Shown in pieces: positions 1 through 54,943 of a DNA stretch of 60,311 nt (the stretch's first letter is position 1; each line of letters starts with the position of its first letter). The translations under genes and the position numbers were made by a program. The DNA comes from a virus. The stretch spans positions 1 to 60,311 of the IMG/VR virus record IMGVR_UViG_3300014348_000043, one strand, 5' to 3'. The notes beneath the pieces are model-generated. The model searched no databases. It saw only the letters and a program-made list of their open reading frames with translations, and was not told where the DNA came from.

Positions 1-214
1 TGCATTTTCTTCTTCAAGCTTTTTTATCTTTTGCGACAAAATAACATAGGCGGCGATGAATCCAATTTCTGCCCCATCCTCGGGAGTTTCTGGGACAATG
101 TCAAACACCCTTCCTTTTTGGCAGAGGGCCTCTCGCACCATTCTTTTCAGTGTTTCTAGGGTTTCTTTATCCATGTCTCCTCAATTTCCATCCGTTGTAT
201 GTTTTATAGAAAAC
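1..214. repeat. Direct terminal repeat, left copy (identical to 60098..60311)
   Basis: All 214 bases (tgcattttcttcttcaagc...gttttatagaaaac) recur exactly at 60098-60311. The repeat cuts through two ORFs: bases 1-174 are the 5' part of the 69-aa ORF 60062..60271, and it also holds the 3' end of the 80-aa membrane ORF. It is therefore genome-end redundancy or circular overlap, not a gene boundary. Confidence 0.95.
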
Positions 215-409
215 GTATTTTCTTAGAGGTTCCGCCAGGAAATTTAAGACCAGAAGAATGAAAAATGGAACAAGAAAGGGCCAGACCAACGGGACAATAA
301 TGTTTAGAACTATTTCGGTTCCGTCAATTCTCCCTGGTTCCCAGGCTTTGCGAAACATCTGGGTGGCTAGGATTGCAGCAAAAACAGCATAGATAAAAAT
401 TAAAATCAC
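167..409 (-). CDS. Small integral membrane protein (80 aa)
   Basis: Hydrophobic ORF (VILIFIYAVFAAILAT..., IIVPLVWPFLVPFFILLVLNFL). I prefer the GTG at 409 because GGAGG lies 5 nt upstream and it overlaps the upstream stop as GTGA. The ORF track's longest start is 421. Confidence 0.7.
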   Translation of the reverse strand: MILIFIYAVFAAILATQMFRKAWEPGRIDGTEIVLNIIVPLVWPFLVPFFILLVLNFLAEPLRKYVFYKTYNGWKLRRHG

Positions 410-606
410 TTTTCCTCCCACTTAGTCAGCTTCTCGCCAAAATGTAGTCCTGCCGAAAAACTAGCGAGCATTAGCATAATCGTTCCAATTGGCTCTGCCG
501 CAATTCCATAAAATGCCATCACCGCGAGATTGATAATTGCGGCGAAAAGCGTCCCGGACATAGCCGTCATGAGTACGTCGCGGACCTTCTGTGTTGTGGT
601 TTTCAT
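406..606 (-). CDS. Small integral membrane protein (66 aa, two predicted TM helices)
   Basis: ATG at 606 is preceded by GAGGAG. Hydrophobic stretches: LMTAMSGTLFAAIINLAVMAFYGIA and IGTIMLMLASFSAGL. Confidence 0.75.
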   Translation of the reverse strand: MKTTTQKVRDVLMTAMSGTLFAAIINLAVMAFYGIAAEPIGTIMLMLASFSAGLHFGEKLTKWEEK

Positions 607-846
607 CTGATCTCCTCAAGCCTGTAGCATATTTCAACAAGGTCGTCATGCAGATGGCATATCTTTTTTTCTTTAATTGCTCTGGCGTTTGCTTTGCCAG
701 ACCCGCTTCAGATTGGTCTGACATTTGCGGAGTACCAGACCGCTGCCAGCGCGAGACATATTGCGACTAGAACAAACTTTGCGAATGTCATGTATCAACC
801 CCATGCTCTTTGAGGATTGCTTGAATTTTCGCCTCTACTGGCTCTT

Positions 847-2550: not shown

Positions 2551-3095
2551 GGCTCACCTTTATATCGTCGAATAAGCGAATGCTTCAGTGTTGCGAGCGT
2601 ATTCATTTGATTCTTGTGTTCGCGCTCAGCTTCCTTAGGGTCTGCGAACGGAAGCTCTTTGAACGCTTTGATGTGAAGCATTTCGATGCCTTCGATTTCA
2701 CGAATGGCGAACTTAATGCCTAATTTAAACGCCTCCTCAGAAAGGTAATGGACTCTGTCTTTATTTGCATCTGCGAGCCGCTCCAGTTCTTTGACGCTGG
2801 TTTCGAGAACAGCTTCGCGGTGCTGTTTCATTTGCTCGTATATTGTTTTAGCCATCTCTTCCCCCTTTCTCGGTGGGATGATTTTGTAATTGAGAAACTT
2901 GGCGATAGCTGGCCTGTAATCATCAAGAGCGTTTGCAAGTAGGCAAAAAATAAAACCCACAGCGAGTATCGGCGCGAACAGCGTGAAGAGAATCAGTTCT
3001 ATAACGGTCACATACTTAACTTGAAGCCACCAAGAAAAAACACAGATCGGCAACGACACCGCCCAAATGATTGCGATGATTTCAAGGTAGGTCAT
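2547..3095 (-). CDS. Membrane protein with C-terminal helical domain (182 aa)
   Basis: The N-terminus has hydrophobic helices (IIAIIWAVSLPICVFSWWL, VIELILFTLFAPILAVGFIFCLLA), followed by a charged helical region. Coupled by ATGA at both ends. Confidence 0.75.
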   Translation of the reverse strand: MTYLEIIAIIWAVSLPICVFSWWLQVKYVTVIELILFTLFAPILAVGFIFCLLANALDDYRPAIAKFLNYKIIPPRKGEEMAKTIYEQMKQHREAVLETSVKELERLADANKDRVHYLSEEAFKLGIKFAIREIEGIEMLHIKAFKELPFADPKEAEREHKNQMNTLATLKHSLIRRYKGEP

Positions 3096-3406
3096 AAAAC
3101 CTCAATCCTCACGCGTGTGCGTTTGCCGACAAGTTTGTTCAATGTGCGTCTGTGTTCTCGATCAGAGGGGAATGGCCAAGCTCCATTCACATCTACAATC
3201 GTTACCCACTTACACTCAAACTCGATCACCTCTGGTTCGATTTCCCAGTCGTTCGCTAAAATATCCGACTCCAAAAAAATTATCTGCCCAGTTTCTCTCG
3301 AAATCGTGCCGAGCGATGAATTTTTATTTGCGAATAAATAGCTGCTTTTATCCCAATGTTTGCGCTTAAACCGCCGCCCACTTTTCACTGCTTCGATGAT
3401 GTTCAT
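3092..3406 (-). CDS. DUF2829-like (Tad2-like fold) small protein, 104 aa
   Basis: The N-terminal 58 aa (MNIIEAVKSGRRFKRKHWDKSSYLF...ESDILANDWEIEPE) match my recollection of the DUF2829 pattern: M.f.eAl.alK.G.k..R..W at the start and eDllA.DWe at the end. I recognised this from memory and did not search. Confidence 0.5.
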   Translation of the reverse strand: MNIIEAVKSGRRFKRKHWDKSSYLFANKNSSLGTISRETGQIIFLESDILANDWEIEPEVIEFECKWVTIVDVNGAWPFPSDREHRRTLNKLVGKRTRVRIEVL

Positions 3407-3409
3407 GCG

Positions 3410-3616
3410 TTAGTCCCTTTTCTTTGGGCGTTTGGCTTTAACAACCGATGTTTTTAAATTGAAAAATCCAAGAGGCTTGTAATTGACCTCATAGACTTCA
3501 CGCTCAGGACCAGCCTCTCGCACGGCCTCCTCTTTTTCATCATAGTGTTCGAAGTAGTGACCATCCTCATCGTTCGAGTCGTCATTCCAGAATGCGTATT
3601 CTTTTAGCTTTTTCAT
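3410..3616 (-). CDS. Hypothetical acidic protein (68 aa)
   Basis: ATG at 3616 has AAAGGAA 7-8 nt upstream. An in-frame UGA sits two codons upstream, so this gene is independent of the upstream structured region. Confidence 0.75.
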   Translation of the reverse strand: MKKLKEYAFWNDDSNDEDGHYFEHYDEKEEAVREAGPEREVYEVNYKPLGFFNLKTSVVKAKRPKKRD

Positions 3617-3619
3617 TTC

Positions 3620-3959
3620 TCATTCCTTTCATAAGTTGAGGCGAGAGCGTGTCCCCAGTGGCTTCTCCTAGATTTACGGCTTTTAATCCATTGCTGGCAC
3701 CGCCGAGTACAGGGTGTTAACCACAGCTTTCCACGCCGCTCGCCTCAATGAAAAGTTATGGACCGCTCTTGGCTCTTGCCCACTCGTAAGTGGAGGTGAG
3801 TCACCCCTAGAGCTGATTTAAGGAAGCGTGCGGGCACACCTATCTCCCTCCAAAACTTTTCATTCAAGCGACCCCTTTCGGGGAGGCGGGGCATTCTTTT
3901 AACCCGACCGTTTACGGGCCCGCCTGCTCGCGCACTATTCCGCACGAGCGCGGATAAAA
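3620..3959 (-). ncRNA. Candidate structured non-coding RNA or structured leader (family not recognised)
   Basis: A 340-nt gap in an otherwise gap-free operon. Helices found by hand on the minus strand: 3949-3942/3933-3926; GGCGGG/CCCGCC at 3924-3919/3890-3885; CCCC-GAAA-GGGG at 3883-3872 (GNRA loop); an 11-bp long-range helix at 3864-3854/3757-3747; CCACU-UACG-AGUGG at about 3793-3780 (UNCG loop); a 13-bp long-range helix at 3746-3732/3651-3638; and CCA-GCAA-UGG at 3697-3688 (GNRA loop). The tetraloops are canonical only on the minus strand. Confidence 0.45.
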
Positions 3960-4670
3960 TTACAACACTGCCTCTCTTACAATCTCTAAAATAAATTTCT
4001 CTTTTAAAGTAGCGGAAAGATTCGAGGTGACAATCTCTTCTACACTTGTAATCCAGCCGCTTTTTATTCTCTTTTTCGCAGGTCGAGCAGGTTCCGCATC
4101 ACCCCCAGCACTCTCAAAACTTCTAGGAACTTTGATCTTTTTCTTTTTCTTCTTCGCGTTAATCCAGCCCTTACCGATTTGCGGGTTTAGACATGGTATT
4201 TCGTGCTCTCTCATCAAGGATGAGATCATAGACTGTACAATTGGCCCTCCCTTGGAGGTGGTGTAACCAATTTCGTTTAGCTCTTTTGCAATATCTGCTT
4301 GTTTCACCTTTGCCGCAGCTCTCTGTCTGACTATCTCGATAGCAACTTCGTCTACTCTTCTTACTACTACTTCAGAGGATTTTTCTGTCTCGACTAATTG
4401 AGGTTCTTGCTTTAGGGCTTCTTCAAATGGCCTGTGTAAAAATCTTTCTTTCACTTTAATCTCCCGTCCGTCATTGAATTCTCTTCCAAGTTTTAAACAC
4501 AACTTACGCAAGTCCTTGACTCTTTTAATGTCGACTCGCCAATCGCTCGGCGTCGAGGAATAAACAAAATTGTGTCCAGTTGTTTTGTCCTTCCAGATAA
4601 CATGCTTGTTTCTTCTTTCAAAAACAAATCCGTTTAACTCTAAAAGTTCTTCAATAGATTTCTTTGTCAC
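3960..4670 (-). CDS. Putative DNA-binding protein (236 aa) with a central resolvase/Hin-type HTH-like segment and a lysine-rich linker
   Basis: The segment KQADIAKELNEIGYTTSKGGPIVQSMISSLMRE resembles resolvase-type HTH. The N-terminus (IEELLELNGFVFERRNKHVIW...) tentatively resembles a YcfA/HicA-like fold. Contains a KKKKKKIK tract. Confidence 0.45.
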   Translation of the reverse strand: MTKKSIEELLELNGFVFERRNKHVIWKDKTTGHNFVYSSTPSDWRVDIKRVKDLRKLCLKLGREFNDGREIKVKERFLHRPFEEALKQEPQLVETEKSSEVVVRRVDEVAIEIVRQRAAAKVKQADIAKELNEIGYTTSKGGPIVQSMISSLMREHEIPCLNPQIGKGWINAKKKKKKIKVPRSFESAGGDAEPARPAKKRIKSGWITSVEEIVTSNLSATLKEKFILEIVREAVL

Positions 4671-5012: not shown

Positions 5013-5086
5013 AAAAAAAAAGATGGGACGTGGTCGCTCGCCAGTTCGACTTAACAGCTAACAACCCCTAAAGGCCGCACGTCCCA
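5013..5086 (-). terminator. Hairpin plus U9 tract, terminator-like
   Basis: On the minus strand UGGGACGUG (5086-5078) pairs with CACGUCCCA (5032-5024) around a 45-nt interior. A run of 9 U follows after 2 nt (plus-strand A9 at 5013-5021). The loop is unusually large for a simple intrinsic terminator. Confidence 0.4.
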
Positions 5087-5095
5087 AACCGTATA

Positions 5096-5524
5096 CTACT
5101 TTTTATCTTTATCGAACGGGACTATCTTTACCTTTGGAAACTTTTCATCCGATCTTAACTGGTTTGACGCCCTAGTTCCGTTCATCCACTTTATTTTTTC
5201 CGTGACTGTTTCTTCCCCGGCAAACTTCTTGTCGAACTTTCCTGTAACGACGTTGTGGCATGTGAAGCACATCGGCAGATAGTTGCCCTGTTTCCAGAAC
5301 CACTCTACTTCTCCCATCGCCGGGCGAATGTGGTCGACAACTGTTGCCAGCTCATTGCAGCAGTAGCATCTCGTGTTTATCTCTAGGAATCGGCGAGAAT
5401 AATTTTCCCAGTTTCCGTGGGTTCGGTCTCGGTAGAGTTTTTGTCGCTTTGTTCGCTCGAGGTTGAGTTCTCTATGCCCAGTGACAACTGCTCGGTGTTT
5501 TGGTTTAAAGTTTCTTTGGCCCAA
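5096..5524 (-). CDS. HNH endonuclease (142 aa from the only in-frame start, TTG 5524)
   Basis: Motifs: CYCCNE...VVDHIRP...GNYLPMCFTCHNVVTGKF. The first 142 nt overlap ORF 5383..5835. There is no in-frame ATG before the HNH core. Confidence 0.8.
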   Translation of the reverse strand: MGQRNFKPKHRAVVTGHRELNLERTKRQKLYRDRTHGNWENYSRRFLEINTRCYCCNELATVVDHIRPAMGEVEWFWKQGNYLPMCFTCHNVVTGKFDKKFAGEETVTEKIKWMNGTRASNQLRSDEKFPKVKIVPFDKDKK

Positions 5525-44559: not shown

Positions 44560-44820
44560 TTAGGAATTTGCGAGGTAAAGATGAAAAACAAACGGACCAT
44601 CGTCGTATGTTGTCAGGTAGGTTCGGCCAGGACCGATGTCGTGTCCAGTCCCGTAGAGACTGAAAGAATACTCTCGCATCACAGCTTCGGGGTCGACCTC
44701 TGCCCACAAAAATAAGTTTTCTTGCTGAAAGGAAACTCTCAAAAATTTCCAAGTCGCGGGGAGGATGATTGAAAAAGAAGAACGGCTTCTTGGGATTGGA
44801 TATTTGTAGACTCTTCTCAT
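44560..44820 (-). CDS. Conserved-looking small protein (86 aa)
   Basis: Its ATG overlaps the terminase stop as ATGA. Contains YKYPIP...LWAEVDP...LYGTGHDI. Confidence 0.65.
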   Translation of the reverse strand: MRRVYKYPIPRSRSSFSIILPATWKFLRVSFQQENLFLWAEVDPEAVMREYSFSLYGTGHDIGPGRTYLTTYDDGPFVFHLYLANS

Positions 44821-47567
44821 AGGCTTCGAATTCCTCTTTCCTCGTAAACAGAAGTTTCTCCCTCATCATTGATCCAGCCAGCAAGGGCCATAAGGATCGC
44901 AATGACAGGGTCAATTTTTAATTTCTCGTGGGACTTTCTCGGGAACACATTTCCGTTATGGTCTTCCTTGGCGACGACATTCCCCATACACCAGCGAAGA
45001 AGTGTCGAGCCATTGTGTTTGATTTTCCCCGAGCGGATCAAAGAGTCGAGCTTTTTCATGGGCTCAGAAAAATTAGAGACGTTCATTGCGACTTTGACCA
45101 TCTCCATTTTGTCGGAAAGTTTCTGCGCGGTCTCTGTCGCACTCCAGGCATCGTACATGCACTCGATAACTCGGTGATCCTTTGCGGCCTGGAGAAGTTC
45201 GCCTTGAATTTGTTCGTAGTTGATCGCCGCGCCTTTTGTCTGAATCAAAGACCCATCAGCCAGACAGTTCTCATAAAAAGGATTTTTCTTTTGCTTGATT
45301 GTGTCTTCGGGCAAGAAGCTTTTATCGAAAATGTAGTAAACATCTTTTTCTTTAAAGACGTAACCGATTGCCGTGATGTCGATGTGTGAGGCAAGATCGA
45401 GCCCGAGGCGGACAGATTTCCCTCGAAAGTCTTCAAGTTTTAATTTCGGGTCAGCGCAGGCGTCCCACATTTTTAAGTCGTAGAACGCATTGGCCTCGCT
45501 GATCCATTGATTCATGTGCTTGATGCGAATGTTTGGAATGTCCGAAGGAGTGACAAGAGCTTTCTCGACTTTCGTGCGAAGAGAGTCGATGTCGACCGAG
45601 ATCCCAAGATTTGGATTTGCCTTGATCCAAACATTCTCGTCCGCCCAGTCGTCCTCATCGTCGAGCGTGTAGACGGCAGAGAAGAAAGAATCGTTACTTA
45701 CTTCGCCCATCGCTACTTTTTTGGCGTACTGGGTCTGGAAAAATCCGACAGAGTTTGTGTCAGAGCCCGCAGTTGTAATACACATCAGCAGGGAGTCTTT
45801 TCGTTTCGACATGCCTGAATAGATGACTTCAAACACCGGGCGGCTCATGGCGTGAAGCTCGTCGCAAATTGCAAGGGCGTCTTTAAGGCCGTCCATGCCT
45901 CCGTGGTCCGCGCTCAAGGCCCGCATAAACGAGTTTGATTTTTTGTGAACGATGGTGTGGGCAAGGACTTCGACCCCAGTTGCTCGAAGGAACGAAGCGT
46001 TCTTTGAGGCCATGGCACGGGCCGAGTCCAAAACAATTCTTGCCTGCTCTCGTTTTGTTGCGACCGCAGAGATGTAGTTTCCGTTTGGATTGTCGAGAGC
46101 CAAAAAGTAGAGGCCCAGAATGGAAGCGATTGAGGAGTTGTGTGTCGGGACCATGTTCTCGCCGATGAGATAGCAGTGATCGGCAGAATCCACCTCAACA
46201 CAAAACATGGGAACTTTTTCTTTCAGCTTTTTGACGCCAACAATGTAGCGGCGGTTTGTGTAAGAGTGTTTCCCTCGTTTTTTTACTTGAAGAGATTTCT
46301 TTCTCTTGAAATTAAAAACAAACTCTTCGCCTCGCGGAGTAAACGCCACTTGCTTGAACAGAGTGTCTGATTTAAAATTATTTTTCTTTGAGACTTTGAA
46401 AGTATCTCTTGTCGGTTTGTACCCCAGCGAGCACAGAAGAATGAAAAGCCCATCAGCAAGTTTGTGGTTTGCATTTGTGAATTCTACTTGTCCGTTTGCT
46501 TTACTGATGTAGCCATCGGAGTCTAAAAGTCCACGTACAAGCTCAAGACGCTGCTGGATGCTGGCCGAAAAGTATTCTTTTGGAATATGTTTATTTTCCA
46601 GCAAGTCCGCTTTGCGAAGAACATCGACGAGGCCCATGACAGGAACAGCGGCTTTATTTCCTTTCGACCACAAGGTGCCAATTTTGTGTTTTCGTTTTTT
46701 CAGAAGCGACACAAGTTGTTTCTGATCTTTTGCGTGGCAATTGAGCCGAGGTCTTTTCCTGTCTCCGTTTCCCAGCCAATAGCCGAGCAAGTAGGGCTCG
46801 ACAGGCAAATTCTTTTTCTCCCCCTGAACGGGCTTGCACAGGTCGATGCTGTGGTTTGTCTCCTTGCCACCATAGGCGCGAAGGGATTTGGCAATTTCTT
46901 TTGTGGATCTCACGCCTTCGTAAATCTCTTTGCGGAGAGTTTTTTGCTGTGCGGCTTGTTTTCCATGACGCGCCTTGCGAACTCGTTCTTTTTTTGACGA
47001 CGTGGGCCATAAATGCTCCGCGCTGCACACCGTCGTCTCGCCGTCCGAGAAAGTTATCTCGTAGGCATCGAGGAATTGGGTCGGAGTCTTCGCCAAAACG
47101 ACACATTGGCCCCCAGTTCGATCAAAAAGTTTCGACCCTACCTCGACCTCCCCCCAAAGCTTCGGTCCGTCTGGGGTCATTACAGGAGTTTTGACGCAGT
47201 GCGCTTTGCCATTCCCTCTGGCGATCTCCAAATGCGCGGTGCGAAAACGCCGAAACCCGGTTTTCTTGTTTTTAAAACCCATGATGCACATGAACGCCCA
47301 GCACTGCCAGGGCTCGAAGACAATGTTCGGGGTGTTCCAGTGTCCTTCGACGTGCTGGAACCTTTGCGCGAGCTTTAGAAACTTTTCTGCCGCATCGGCG
47401 TCGAAATAAAAATTTTCTTCTTTCGCCTTGAGGTCCAGAAAATATCTTTCACATGCGGCGAAGATATATTTATTTGAAACGATTTTGCCGTCGACGATGT
47501 CTTGCGCGTAGGCGTGGCCCCGGACCACGTTCGGGTGTGTCGACTTGTTGAACTTCATCACGACCAC
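44817..47567 (-). CDS. terL: Terminase large subunit, interrupted by an intein (916-aa precursor, about 562 aa after splicing)
   Basis: The N-extein ends in the Walker A-like sequence LEIARGNGKAH. The C-extein has ICDELHAM (Walker B-like), TAGSD and a nuclease half. It is preceded by the small terminase. Confidence 0.9.
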   Translation of the reverse strand: MVVMKFNKSTHPNVVRGHAYAQDIVDGKIVSNKYIFAACERYFLDLKAKEENFYFDADAAEKFLKLAQRFQHVEGHWNTPNIVFEPWQCWAFMCIMGFKNKKTGFRRFRTAHLEIARGNGKAHCVKTPVMTPDGPKLWGEVEVGSKLFDRTGGQCVVLAKTPTQFLDAYEITFSDGETTVCSAEHLWPTSSKKERVRKARHGKQAAQQKTLRKEIYEGVRSTKEIAKSLRAYGGKETNHSIDLCKPVQGEKKNLPVEPYLLGYWLGNGDRKRPRLNCHAKDQKQLVSLLKKRKHKIGTLWSKGNKAAVPVMGLVDVLRKADLLENKHIPKEYFSASIQQRLELVRGLLDSDGYISKANGQVEFTNANHKLADGLFILLCSLGYKPTRDTFKVSKKNNFKSDTLFKQVAFTPRGEEFVFNFKRKKSLQVKKRGKHSYTNRRYIVGVKKLKEKVPMFCVEVDSADHCYLIGENMVPTHNSSIASILGLYFLALDNPNGNYISAVATKREQARIVLDSARAMASKNASFLRATGVEVLAHTIVHKKSNSFMRALSADHGGMDGLKDALAICDELHAMSRPVFEVIYSGMSKRKDSLLMCITTAGSDTNSVGFFQTQYAKKVAMGEVSNDSFFSAVYTLDDEDDWADENVWIKANPNLGISVDIDSLRTKVEKALVTPSDIPNIRIKHMNQWISEANAFYDLKMWDACADPKLKLEDFRGKSVRLGLDLASHIDITAIGYVFKEKDVYYIFDKSFLPEDTIKQKKNPFYENCLADGSLIQTKGAAINYEQIQGELLQAAKDHRVIECMYDAWSATETAQKLSDKMEMVKVAMNVSNFSEPMKKLDSLIRSGKIKHNGSTLLRWCMGNVVAKEDHNGNVFPRKSHEKLKIDPVIAILMALAGWINDEGETSVYEERGIRSL
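46137..47198 (-). mobile_element. Intein (354 aa) with LAGLIDADG homing endonuclease domain, in the terminase P-loop region
   Basis: It starts at Cys124 (CVKTPVMTPDG...). It has two LAGLIDADG blocks (LLGYWLGNGD and LVRGLLDSDGYIS). It ends ...VPTHN with Ser as the +1 residue (SSIASILGLYF). Codon positions were checked against the DNA: TGC at 47198..47196 and AAC at 46139..46137. Confidence 0.85.
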
Positions 47568-54501: not shown

Positions 54502-54681
54502 TTTGATCTCCCTTGTTTGTTTTTGAAAAACACTTGTCCTCAAGAGACCTTAGTTCAAATGTTATGCCATGCTATTTTAATAGCATTTTAAAACAGTCCT
54601 AAGCACTAGATGCCATCACCTCAAACCTATAGGATCTAAACATGCGCCCATCTATTAATAGGCGCGGCGAGAAGAGCTGCG

Positions 54682-54769
54682 TTCTCATTTTGAGGCGTAG
54701 AACTTGCATACAAAGTGACGTGGATTGTCACTGAGACATGTCTCAATCAAAGACTGCGCCAGTGACAAT
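54682..54769. promoter_or_regulatory. Right operator cluster (same motif family as 52171-52538)
   Basis: TTCTCATTTTGAGGCG-TAGAACTT at 54682-54705, matching TTCTCATTTTGAGACGGTGTAGAACTT at 52464-52490. A 14-bp perfect palindrome TGAGACATGTCTCA at 54732-54745 is nested in a 10-bp inverted repeat ATTGTCACTG/CAGTGACAAT (54724-54733 / 54760-54769). Confidence 0.55.
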
Positions 54770-54808
54770 TTTGGCAAATCGACCACGTTATTTTATGGCC
54801 AGTCCCGT

Positions 54809-54838
54809 TTTACGCAGCAGCCATCTCAAATATATAAT
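54809..54838 (+). promoter_or_regulatory. Sigma70-like promoter for the plus-strand ORF 54944..55318
   Basis: TTTACG (54809-54814), an 18-nt spacer, then TATAAT (54833-54838). Confidence 0.45.
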
Positions 54839-54943
54839 CGAAATAATGGGAGATGAATTTTGGTTGCCACGCGCCTCTCTATAAAACATAAGTTACAGAA
54901 AAATTTTTGAGAAAAAATTCTCGCGTGAGAGGGGAATTCCGCA

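Follow-up and report, generated by a model that had tools for sequence, protein, structure and literature searches.

A 343-nt gap (3617-3959) in a minus-strand operon of a phage genome probably specifies a genuine folded RNA, a lineage-specific module on the operon transcript whose function is suggested by its anatomy and surroundings. The stretch of DNA analysed, hereafter the window, is 60,311 nt in length and represents the IMG/VR virus record IMGVR_UViG_3300014348_000043. The functional reading that we favour, tentatively and at well short of an even chance, is that this element is an autonomous folded RNA module, either stable or excised from the operon message, that acts through its shape. 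The gap would accordingly be a non-coding segment of the polycistronic minus-strand transcript which folds independently into a compact shape, with three 5' hairpins (3949-3872) followed by two abutting domains, termed B and C (Table 1). The module would persist as a stable RNA, or be cut out of the operon message as one, and its three-dimensional fold would do the work, perhaps as a binding site for a protein. The candidate partner is the adjacent orphan protein of 236 aa, with its RNA-binding-type, HicA/dsRBD-like N-terminus and HTH; both lie in an accessory region in which a Tad2-like anti-defence gene is found as well. We infer the accumulation, processing and binding of the RNA from this anatomy and context. 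In favour of the module we count the non-coding status of the gap, its shuffle z-scores, its tetraloops, the robustness of its helices, a GC excess of 10 points and the nature of the neighbouring genes.

The genome in the window is that of a siphovirus-type phage without cultured relatives, and its products include a tape-measure protein, a tail tube protein, the large terminase (TerL), a family-A DNA polymerase, an ATP-dependent ligase, MazG and a lysin. Nearly all genes of the phage lie on the minus strand, and their spacing is otherwise tight (-4 to +14 nt). Megablast and blastn searches of the window against 50,697 GenBank phages returned no match; the ligase recovered 1678 records from GenBank phages, all below 60% identity and reaching only ~35%, and in a collection of 5.8 billion proteins its identity to other ligases was at most 58%. 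The same phage is also found as ENA ERZ795033 NODE_212 and in Logan SRR5576001. The element is 100% identical across these three copies, all of which may come from one common sample, a circumstance that we count against the module. The genome also contains mobile DNA, namely an HNH endonuclease ORF (~5100-5450) that was missed by the gene callers and a LAGLIDADG insertion in TerL. ARAGORN detected no tRNA or tmRNA genes in the whole window, and a tRNA, tmRNA or tRNA-like identity for the element was rejected, with neither a cloverleaf nor tmRNA architecture being recognized.

The gap extends from the UAA of the upstream 236-aa ORF to the ATG of the downstream 68-aa ORF, and the public annotation of the identical ENA contig likewise places no gene in it. 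The original prediction regarded it as the sole gap in the operon, which needs correcting in that the public gene calls leave a second one at 5015-5382, where an uncalled HNH-endonuclease ORF lies. As predicted, the gap is richer in GC than its flanks (54.2%, versus 43.9% in the local operon and 48.3% in the window). All six reading frames are broken by stops, which include all three kinds, the six-frame translated pieces have no match in Pfam, and GC does not vary with codon phase (0.54/0.54/0.55), in contrast to the marked phase dependence seen in both flanking genes. On these grounds the gap is indeed non-coding. The absence of Pfam matches also led us to reject a pseudogene, and recoding of a stop was ruled out by the joint presence of UAA, UGA and UAG in one frame. 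That the gap instead encodes a small protein, through the 66-codon Arg/Gly-rich GTG ORF at 3745-3945 or through a micro-ORF, is barely credible. The former ORF exists, and a GGAGG followed 7 nt later by a GUG opens a 10-codon ORF at ~3835. Nevertheless, the start at 3945 has no preceding Shine-Dalgarno sequence (SD), in line with the original description of this ORF, which was absent from the gene calls of the public assemblies, had no family match and found no relatives when its translation was used in searches; nor does the gap carry any codon-phase GC signal. The little probability left outside a folded RNA, which we hold to be likely, and relic or foreign DNA, which we hold to be rather unlikely, falls mostly to a small coding ORF.

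On the minus strand the minimum free energy (MFE) of the 343 nt is -135 kcal/mol (z -3.76, 0/100 shuffles as good), and in an independent set of 300 dinucleotide shuffles, which gave a z of -3.6, none was as stable and the best reached -131. The plus strand folds at -114 kcal/mol, with a z of -1.63. Folded separately, the three sub-domains each reach significance on the minus strand (z -2.53, -3.47 and -3.28) and weaker on the plus strand (z -1.57, -2.26 and -1.30), which upholds the earlier claim that it is specifically the transcribed strand that is structured. The predicted fold comprises 110 pairs, 12 of them G-U, and five tetraloops, three of which, capping stems of 3 bp or more, belong to the GNRA/UNCG classes. 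Three such loops were reached in 0/300 shuffles (261 of the 300 had none), and the plus-strand fold has no GNRA or UNCG loop, consistent with the expectation that the loops would be non-canonical on that strand. In a GC-corrected sliding scan the gap fell in about the top 1% of all 343-nt segments, with others, some of them coding, being comparable, a result that we count against the module. A further intergenic region (54544-54943), AT-rich and full of perfect palindromes, has a z of -3.73. We read the strand-specific structure signal as real, though not overwhelming.

The same scan lends some weight to the explanation that the gap is functionless or relic DNA, either a decayed gene or a foreign, GC-richer piece that arrived with the 236-aa gene, and that its fold is a matter of luck, given that ~1% of segments, including coding ones, equal it in GC-corrected stability. 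The GC content unlike that of the flanks would fit a foreign origin, the genome harbours the other mobile DNA described above, and the element is a singleton for which every homology search was negative. We nonetheless place this explanation on the unlikely side, while treating it as a serious contender: chance would have to account for a strand-specific stability and a set of tetraloops that none of 300 shuffles reproduced, and for three sub-domains that are significant independently of each other, and a decayed gene for the absence of residual protein-family similarity in every frame. Moreover, phage genomes seldom retain 343 nt of junk within a tight operon.

Table 1. Features of the element and its flanking genes (window coordinates; SD, Shine-Dalgarno sequence).
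Feature	Coordinates	Strand	Basis or remark
Upstream orphan gene, 236 aa	3960..4670	-	Putative protein partner of the RNA
H1, 9-bp hairpin GCUCGUGCG / UGCGCGAGC, 6-nt loop	3926..3949	-	MFE; pair probabilities 0.86-1.0 in five contexts
H2, outer 7-bp helix AGGCGGG/CCCGCCU enclosing a 4-bp inner hairpin	3884..3925	-	
H3, CCCC-GAAA-GGGG, GNRA tetraloop hairpin	3872..3883	-	Sequence
Domain B, multi-way junction closed by an 11-bp helix (3864-3854 with 3757-3747)	3747..3864	-	
Domain C, irregular rod of ~32 bp	3638..3746	-	Fold
Unstructured tail with SD (AGGA) of the 68-aa gene	3617..3637	-	Sequence and fold
Downstream gene, 68 aa, complete small phage protein	3410..3616	-	Family alignment

Pair probabilities were computed with the partition function for 324, 343, 401, 481 and 701 nt folded, and H1, H3, the closing helix of domain B and the basal helices of domain C all pair with a probability of about 1.0 in every context. 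H1 begins 10 nt past the upstream stop codon. In H2, which has a 12-nt A-rich 3' bulge (UUAAAAGAAUGC), the inner hairpin is robust (0.77-0.96) and the outer helix varies with context (0.04-0.92); hence, of the GGCGGG/CCCGCC helix proposed earlier, the sequence is present and the pairing is context-dependent. The pairs of H3 have probabilities of ~0.97-1.0, save for one pair in one context (0.80). Domain B is closed by AAUGAAAAGUU, which is perfectly complementary to AACUUUUCAUU over 11 bp and was also detected as inverted repeat I1. The eight central pairs of this helix (3862-3855) stand at 0.94-1.0 in all contexts and the outermost pairs at 0.41-0.81. The interior of the domain contains an extended hairpin with a CCCG loop and a sub-junction with three abutting hairpins (ACU, UACG and AAGA loops). 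Domain C abuts domain B with a 0-nt linker; its basal helix of 8+5/6 bp, in which GAGGCGAG/CUCGCCUC (3746-3739 with 3645-3638) and GCGUG/CACGC (3736-3732 with 3651-3647) make up 13 bp interrupted by a bulge, has probabilities of 0.97-1.0 in all contexts, and leads via the asymmetric internal loops AUUAAAA and UAAAUC to an apical CCA-GCAA-UGG hairpin of the GNRA class. Folded alone, domains B and C reach -43.1 and -44.9 kcal/mol, respectively, and in neither case was any of 200 shuffles as good.

The 11-bp and 13-bp long-range helices of the original prediction were thus recovered at their coordinates in a base-by-base check, with pairing probabilities near 1.0. The three tetraloops that it named, GAAA (3879-3876), UACG (3788-3785) and GCAA (3694-3691), are likewise present, with the qualification that UACG is closed by a U-A rather than a C-G pair. 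With its abutting helices, multi-way junctions and GNRA loops, the predicted architecture looks like that of a tertiary-structured RNA, and not like a simple hairpin.

The predicted structure stops 22 nt short of the ATG of the 68-aa gene, which has its own SD and an in-frame UGA two codons ahead of the start, both of them read directly in the sequence as had been reported. In the 401-nt and 481-nt contexts the bases of the SD are 0.94-0.98 unpaired and are displayed in the loop of a small hairpin. Folding of the bare 343 nt, and of no longer context, adds a weak 5'-3' closing helix over the SD. On the minus strand between 3000 and 5200 we found neither a promoter nor any hairpin followed by a U-run that would resemble a terminator. 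Counting against the module, no recognizable promoter, terminator or processing signals delimit a discrete RNA there.

Several of these features would suit a cis-acting intercistronic processing and stability element. Under this explanation the long irregular hairpins, above all domain C with its 32 bp and the base of domain B with its 11+3 bp, would act as entry sites of the RNase III/RNase E type or as exonuclease barriers. Expression of the upstream gene would in this way be uncoupled from that of the accessory genes downstream, and one of the products would be stabilised. RNase III sites between T7 genes work in this manner, and the element resembles such hairpins of T7-like phages in having irregular duplexes between cistrons of a polycistronic unit, no promoter or terminator, and a downstream ribosome-binding site that is left free by a structure ending 22 nt before the next ATG; the location of H1 just 10 nt from the upstream stop codon points the same way. 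Domain C forms an extended, imperfect duplex broken by internal loops, and in the predicted fold its 14 bp of near-continuous basal duplex, and ~32 bp overall, may be set against the about two helical turns expected of a processing site. Known phage processing sites are, however, single hairpins of ~50-60 nt, whereas the element occupies 343 nt, ~310 of them paired or structured, in three hairpins and two domains that include multi-way junctions and GNRA/UNCG loops, three of the latter. The 68-aa gene, moreover, does without anything of the kind in its other carriers. We regard a processing element as unlikely, though as a close rival of the module among the functional readings.

The free SD and the lack of a terminator bear equally on the original suggestion of a riboswitch-like or processive-antitermination leader for the downstream accessory genes. 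The element is large and structured, a series of small accessory genes follows it, and its A-rich bulge and junctions could make a pocket. Yet the expression platform that such a leader calls for is absent, with no terminator in the gap and an SD that is unpaired when flanks are included; no aptamer or riboswitch class was matched even at E<=10, and on ten contigs elsewhere the 68-aa gene family is not associated with the element. This suggestion did not hold up and is a remote prospect. It is because no terminator or promoter was found and the SD is free that we speak of a module rather than a switch.

No catalogued RNA family accounts for the element, in accordance with the first impression of the sequence. 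With the 4227 covariance models of Rfam 15, the whole window yielded no match at the gathering threshold. At E<=10, with permissive filters, 3500-4100 gave four junk matches of at most 17 bits (snoRNA, lncRNA), the robust core at 3630-3870 gave none, and 3860-3965 gave a single miRNA match of 18.5 bits against a threshold of 95; we attach no meaning to any of these.

These searches also weigh on the notion of a ribozyme or mobile RNA element, such as a self-cleaving RNA lying between genes or a group I-like intron devoid of an ORF in that position, possibly mobilised along with the DNA-binding orphan gene or the HNH endonuclease. In its length (within the 250-400 nt of small phage group I introns, RF00028), its GC content above that of the flanks and its GNRA loops the element is like these introns, and its host genome, with the HNH endonuclease and the LAGLIDADG insertion in TerL, contains elements of the homing-endonuclease type; relative to the related phages, the element is also an insertion. 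Unlike the introns, it lies outside genes and displays no identifiable P3-P7 core or splice-site pairing, and no model for Intron_gpI, Intron_gpII, GIR1 or a self-cleaving ribozyme was matched at E<=10. It interrupts no gene, as the original prediction had argued: the 68-aa gene is complete, and its product can be aligned from its very start with 36 homologues, stand-alone proteins of 64-97 aa. The hand joins tried at the sole plausible 3' junction, a G four bases before the start codon, recreate a stop, and no terminal repeats or target-site duplication surround the cassette. We find the earlier ribozyme suggestion poorly supported, and consider an RNA of this kind highly improbable.

Other identities were considered and rejected. 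A group I intron proper fails on exon joining, with the 236-aa ORF ending at its own UAA and an in-frame UGA preceding the ATG of the 68-aa gene, and on its P3-P9 core, which RF00028 did not recognize at E<=10 with permissive filters. A type III toxin-antitoxin RNA of the ToxI kind was set aside, there being no direct repeat family in the gap, where tandem units of ~34-36 nt beside an endoribonuclease toxin gene would be expected, and the HicA-like call being sub-threshold. A MITE or IS-derived element was dismissed for want of flanking TIRs or TSDs and on account of the single copy in the window, and an antisense function for want of anything beyond chance complementarities of 10-11 nt to the rest of the window.

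Searches for relatives of the element were uniformly negative. Blastn and megablast of the element against GenBank phages, plasmids and E. coli genomes found nothing. Four motif patterns, exact and degenerate, gave chance matches only in IMG/VR; a single pattern gave three chance matches inside coding sequence in GTDB genomes, and a single pattern gave none in JGI metagenomes, a collection from which the window itself is evidently absent. The open frames of the RNA, back-translated into degenerate patterns, picked up 600 chance stretches in the metagenomes, and 48 and 15 stretches in scans of IMG/VR, none of which was confirmed. Over 46 fetched loci, nhmmer, blastn and single-sequence covariance models of domains B and C recovered the window itself only. 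The collections searched thus hold no second copy, and hence lend the module no conservation or covariation support, which we count against it.

Relatives of the phage were approached through its ligase, by way of 13 IMG/VR loci and the set of 5.8 billion proteins, and three relatives of 57-64 kb were examined. The nearest of these keep the PolA-helicase-ligase arrangement and have other small genes at the position of the element, which is absent from them; these phages are distant, with a ligase identity of at most 58%. The 68-aa protein family has 40 representatives at E<=1e-3, and ten contigs with homologues, representing nine distinct contexts, contained no covariance-model match to the element. 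In seven of the contexts the upstream gap measures -14 to 57 nt or has an uncalled ORF inside (two apparent gaps proved to be uncalled ORFs); in one the gene lies behind a divergent region of 949 nt, and in one it starts at the end of the contig. Absence from related phages and from the other contexts of the 68-aa gene counts against the module. The original prediction had named absence or lack of conservation in close relatives as evidence against it, and absence is what we observe at the distances available. Because the phage relatives and the other carriers of the downstream gene are without the element, we regard it as a lineage-specific insertion, possibly acquired with the 236-aa gene.

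The putative partner encoded by this gene shows weak sequence affinities of an RNA-binding type. It matches phrog_2053 (E 8.7e-8) and phrog_353, annotated as 'toxin' (E 0.006), and in Pfam HicA_toxin (E 0.065) and Recombinase (E 0.06) are both below the cut-off. Taken together, a weak HicA/dsRBD-like N-terminus is followed by a central helical, HTH-like segment. AlphaFold2 without an alignment produced an alpha-beta-beta-beta-alpha arrangement at residues 6-64 with low confidence (pLDDT 47). The position of the HicA-like call below curated thresholds and the poor model are both counted against the module. The protein had no homologues in the search of 5.8 billion proteins and no match among PDB sequences, and, as far as tested, it does not belong to an Aca family. 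Two genes downstream of the element lies the Tad2-like (anti-Thoeris) gene, whose assignment is just above the Pfam cut-off.

This neighbourhood invites comparison with the RNA motifs bound by Aca proteins in the 5' UTRs of phage anti-defence operons, where the protein binds RNA and controls translation (PMC13551039). Here too a gene for an HTH protein, a structured RNA and a gene of the anti-defence type (Tad2-like) share one operon. The Aca-bound motifs, however, are short: they form hairpins that cover the ribosome-binding site, no more than ~100 nt from where the operon begins (PMC13551039). The element is 343 nt long, follows the HTH gene in the operon and has the ribosome-binding site outside its structure. 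Catalogued candidate structured RNAs of viruses and phages are described as products of comparative genomics (PMC10690425). The element is like these candidates in occupying an intergenic phage region and having a predicted structure and no assigned function, and differs in having no detectable relative in IMG/VR, for which reason comparative methods could be expected to miss it.

Phage RNAs of the GOLLD and ROOL types often occur near tRNA genes. These 'ornate' non-coding RNAs are large, multi-domain molecules of ~580-800 nt that are widely conserved and supported by covariation (PMC12286853). The element shares with them the appearance of a large, multi-domain, protein-free phage RNA with many junctions and tetraloops and no role assigned to it in the phage; in contrast to them, it has only 343 nt, is a singleton, is accompanied by no tRNAs in the window and matches nothing in Rfam. 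That it founds a new class of large phage RNA, with a compact fold of 230-310 nt acting in trans during infection, is improbable in our estimation. Such an RNA could be the RNP partner of the HicA/dsRBD-like HTH protein, or a decoy or scaffold in an anti-defence and host-takeover programme; a new self-processing ribozyme is less likely than these roles. The element is new at the level of the sequence family, and in kind it belongs to the familiar and populous orphan candidate structured RNAs of phage intergenic regions.

To our knowledge, few phage RNAs of similar size bear hallmarks of tertiary structure, such as GNRA loops and stacked junctions, and most of them have no assigned function, which is why a tractable example would be useful. 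At present the element offers a well-defined target for covariance-model searches of raw read archives and for transcript and probing work. If its fold is real and functional, a phage without cultured relatives would possess a previously unseen RNA of ~300 nt, situated beside an orphan protein of RNA-binding type and a Tad2-like anti-defence gene.

The original prediction held that gaps in the operon carrying the putative folded RNA element (3617-3959) are otherwise 0-10 nt, a description that the public gene calls do not bear out. These calls leave a further 368 nt (5015-5382) empty, so the tight packing is broken elsewhere than at the studied gap, yet this stretch contains an HNH endonuclease ORF, whose start is TTG or uncertain and which overlaps the end of the 150-aa ORF upstream. 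The coordinates of this and the other features are collected in the table.

Features in and around the operon and elsewhere in the window
Feature	Position	Strand	Basis
104-aa Tad2-like protein	window 3092-3406	minus	Pfam domain match
68-aa product	window 3410-3616	minus	alignment A4 (68-aa family)
Uncalled ORFs 5' of 68-aa homologues	L041 3760-3951; L044 about 196-656		
UUAAAAG motif	window about 3904-3898 and 3685-3679	minus	read from sequence and predicted fold
UAAAUC(N0-5)UAGGRG motif	window about 3819-3803 and 3675-3665	minus	read from sequence and predicted fold
236-aa orphan protein	window 3960-4670	minus	profile matches, predicted model
HNH endonuclease ORF	window 5096-5524	minus	PHROG matches, best E 1.6e-12
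Large terminase TerL, 916 aa	window 44817-47567	minus	LAGLIDADG-type domain match
AT-rich intergenic region, 400 nt	window 54544-54943	minus	fold vs shuffles

Immediately upstream of the RNA element lies the gene for a 236-aa protein with no homologue among the 5.8 billion proteins searched. Its N-terminus weakly matches a HicA-toxin/dsRBD-like domain, its centre contains an HTH-like segment, and there is also a Lys-rich linker; the protein could be a fusion of HicA-like and DNA-binding parts.

Within the RNA itself, two short motifs each appear twice, in structural surroundings that are alike each time in the predicted fold. UUAAAAG would supply the 3' strand of an asymmetric loop beside a small hairpin, both in the hairpin region H2 and at the apex of domain C. 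UAAAUC(N0-5)UAGGRG is present once in each of domains B and C. The element also contains UCACCUCC, the same sequence as the 16S rRNA anti-SD tail, which is predicted to pair with an SD-like GGGGUGA or GGAGG.

Strong folding is also predicted for the AT-rich intergenic region (z -3.73 against shuffled sequences; 0 of 100 shuffles equally good). Its stability is supplied by near-perfect long palindromes, such as UUGUCACUG...CAGUGACAA and AUGCUAUUAAAAUAGCAU, and the region resembles an operator, a terminator or a boundary between modules more than it does an RNA with tertiary structure. In TerL, residues 339-389 match a LAGLIDADG-type domain ahead of the matched portions of the ATPase and nuclease domains, a pattern that would fit the insertion of an intein or a homing endonuclease.

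Downstream of the element, the 68-aa product is one of a family of small phage proteins that carries no annotation (40 cluster representatives; no match in Pfam or PHROG), with the consensus KQYAxW...YW..YDSLEDAV...VYE...K.LG.F..K...VK.KK and a basic tail. Its members are found among varied sets of accessory genes. Apparent intergenic gaps 5' of the homologues in two other phage contigs, L041 and L044, proved to be ORFs missed by the gene calls: one encodes a 63-aa Cys-rich zinc-ribbon-like protein, with an ATGA junction overlapping the stop of the SLT gene, and the other a protein of ~150 aa with an HEVVH motif. Back in the window, the 104-aa protein encoded next to the 68-aa gene scores 27.3 bits (E 5e-6) against Pfam's Tad2-like domain (Thoeris anti-defence 2), barely exceeding the curated cut-off of 25 bits; because of this match, the sequence suggests that the distal cluster of small genes is an anti-defence or accessory region.
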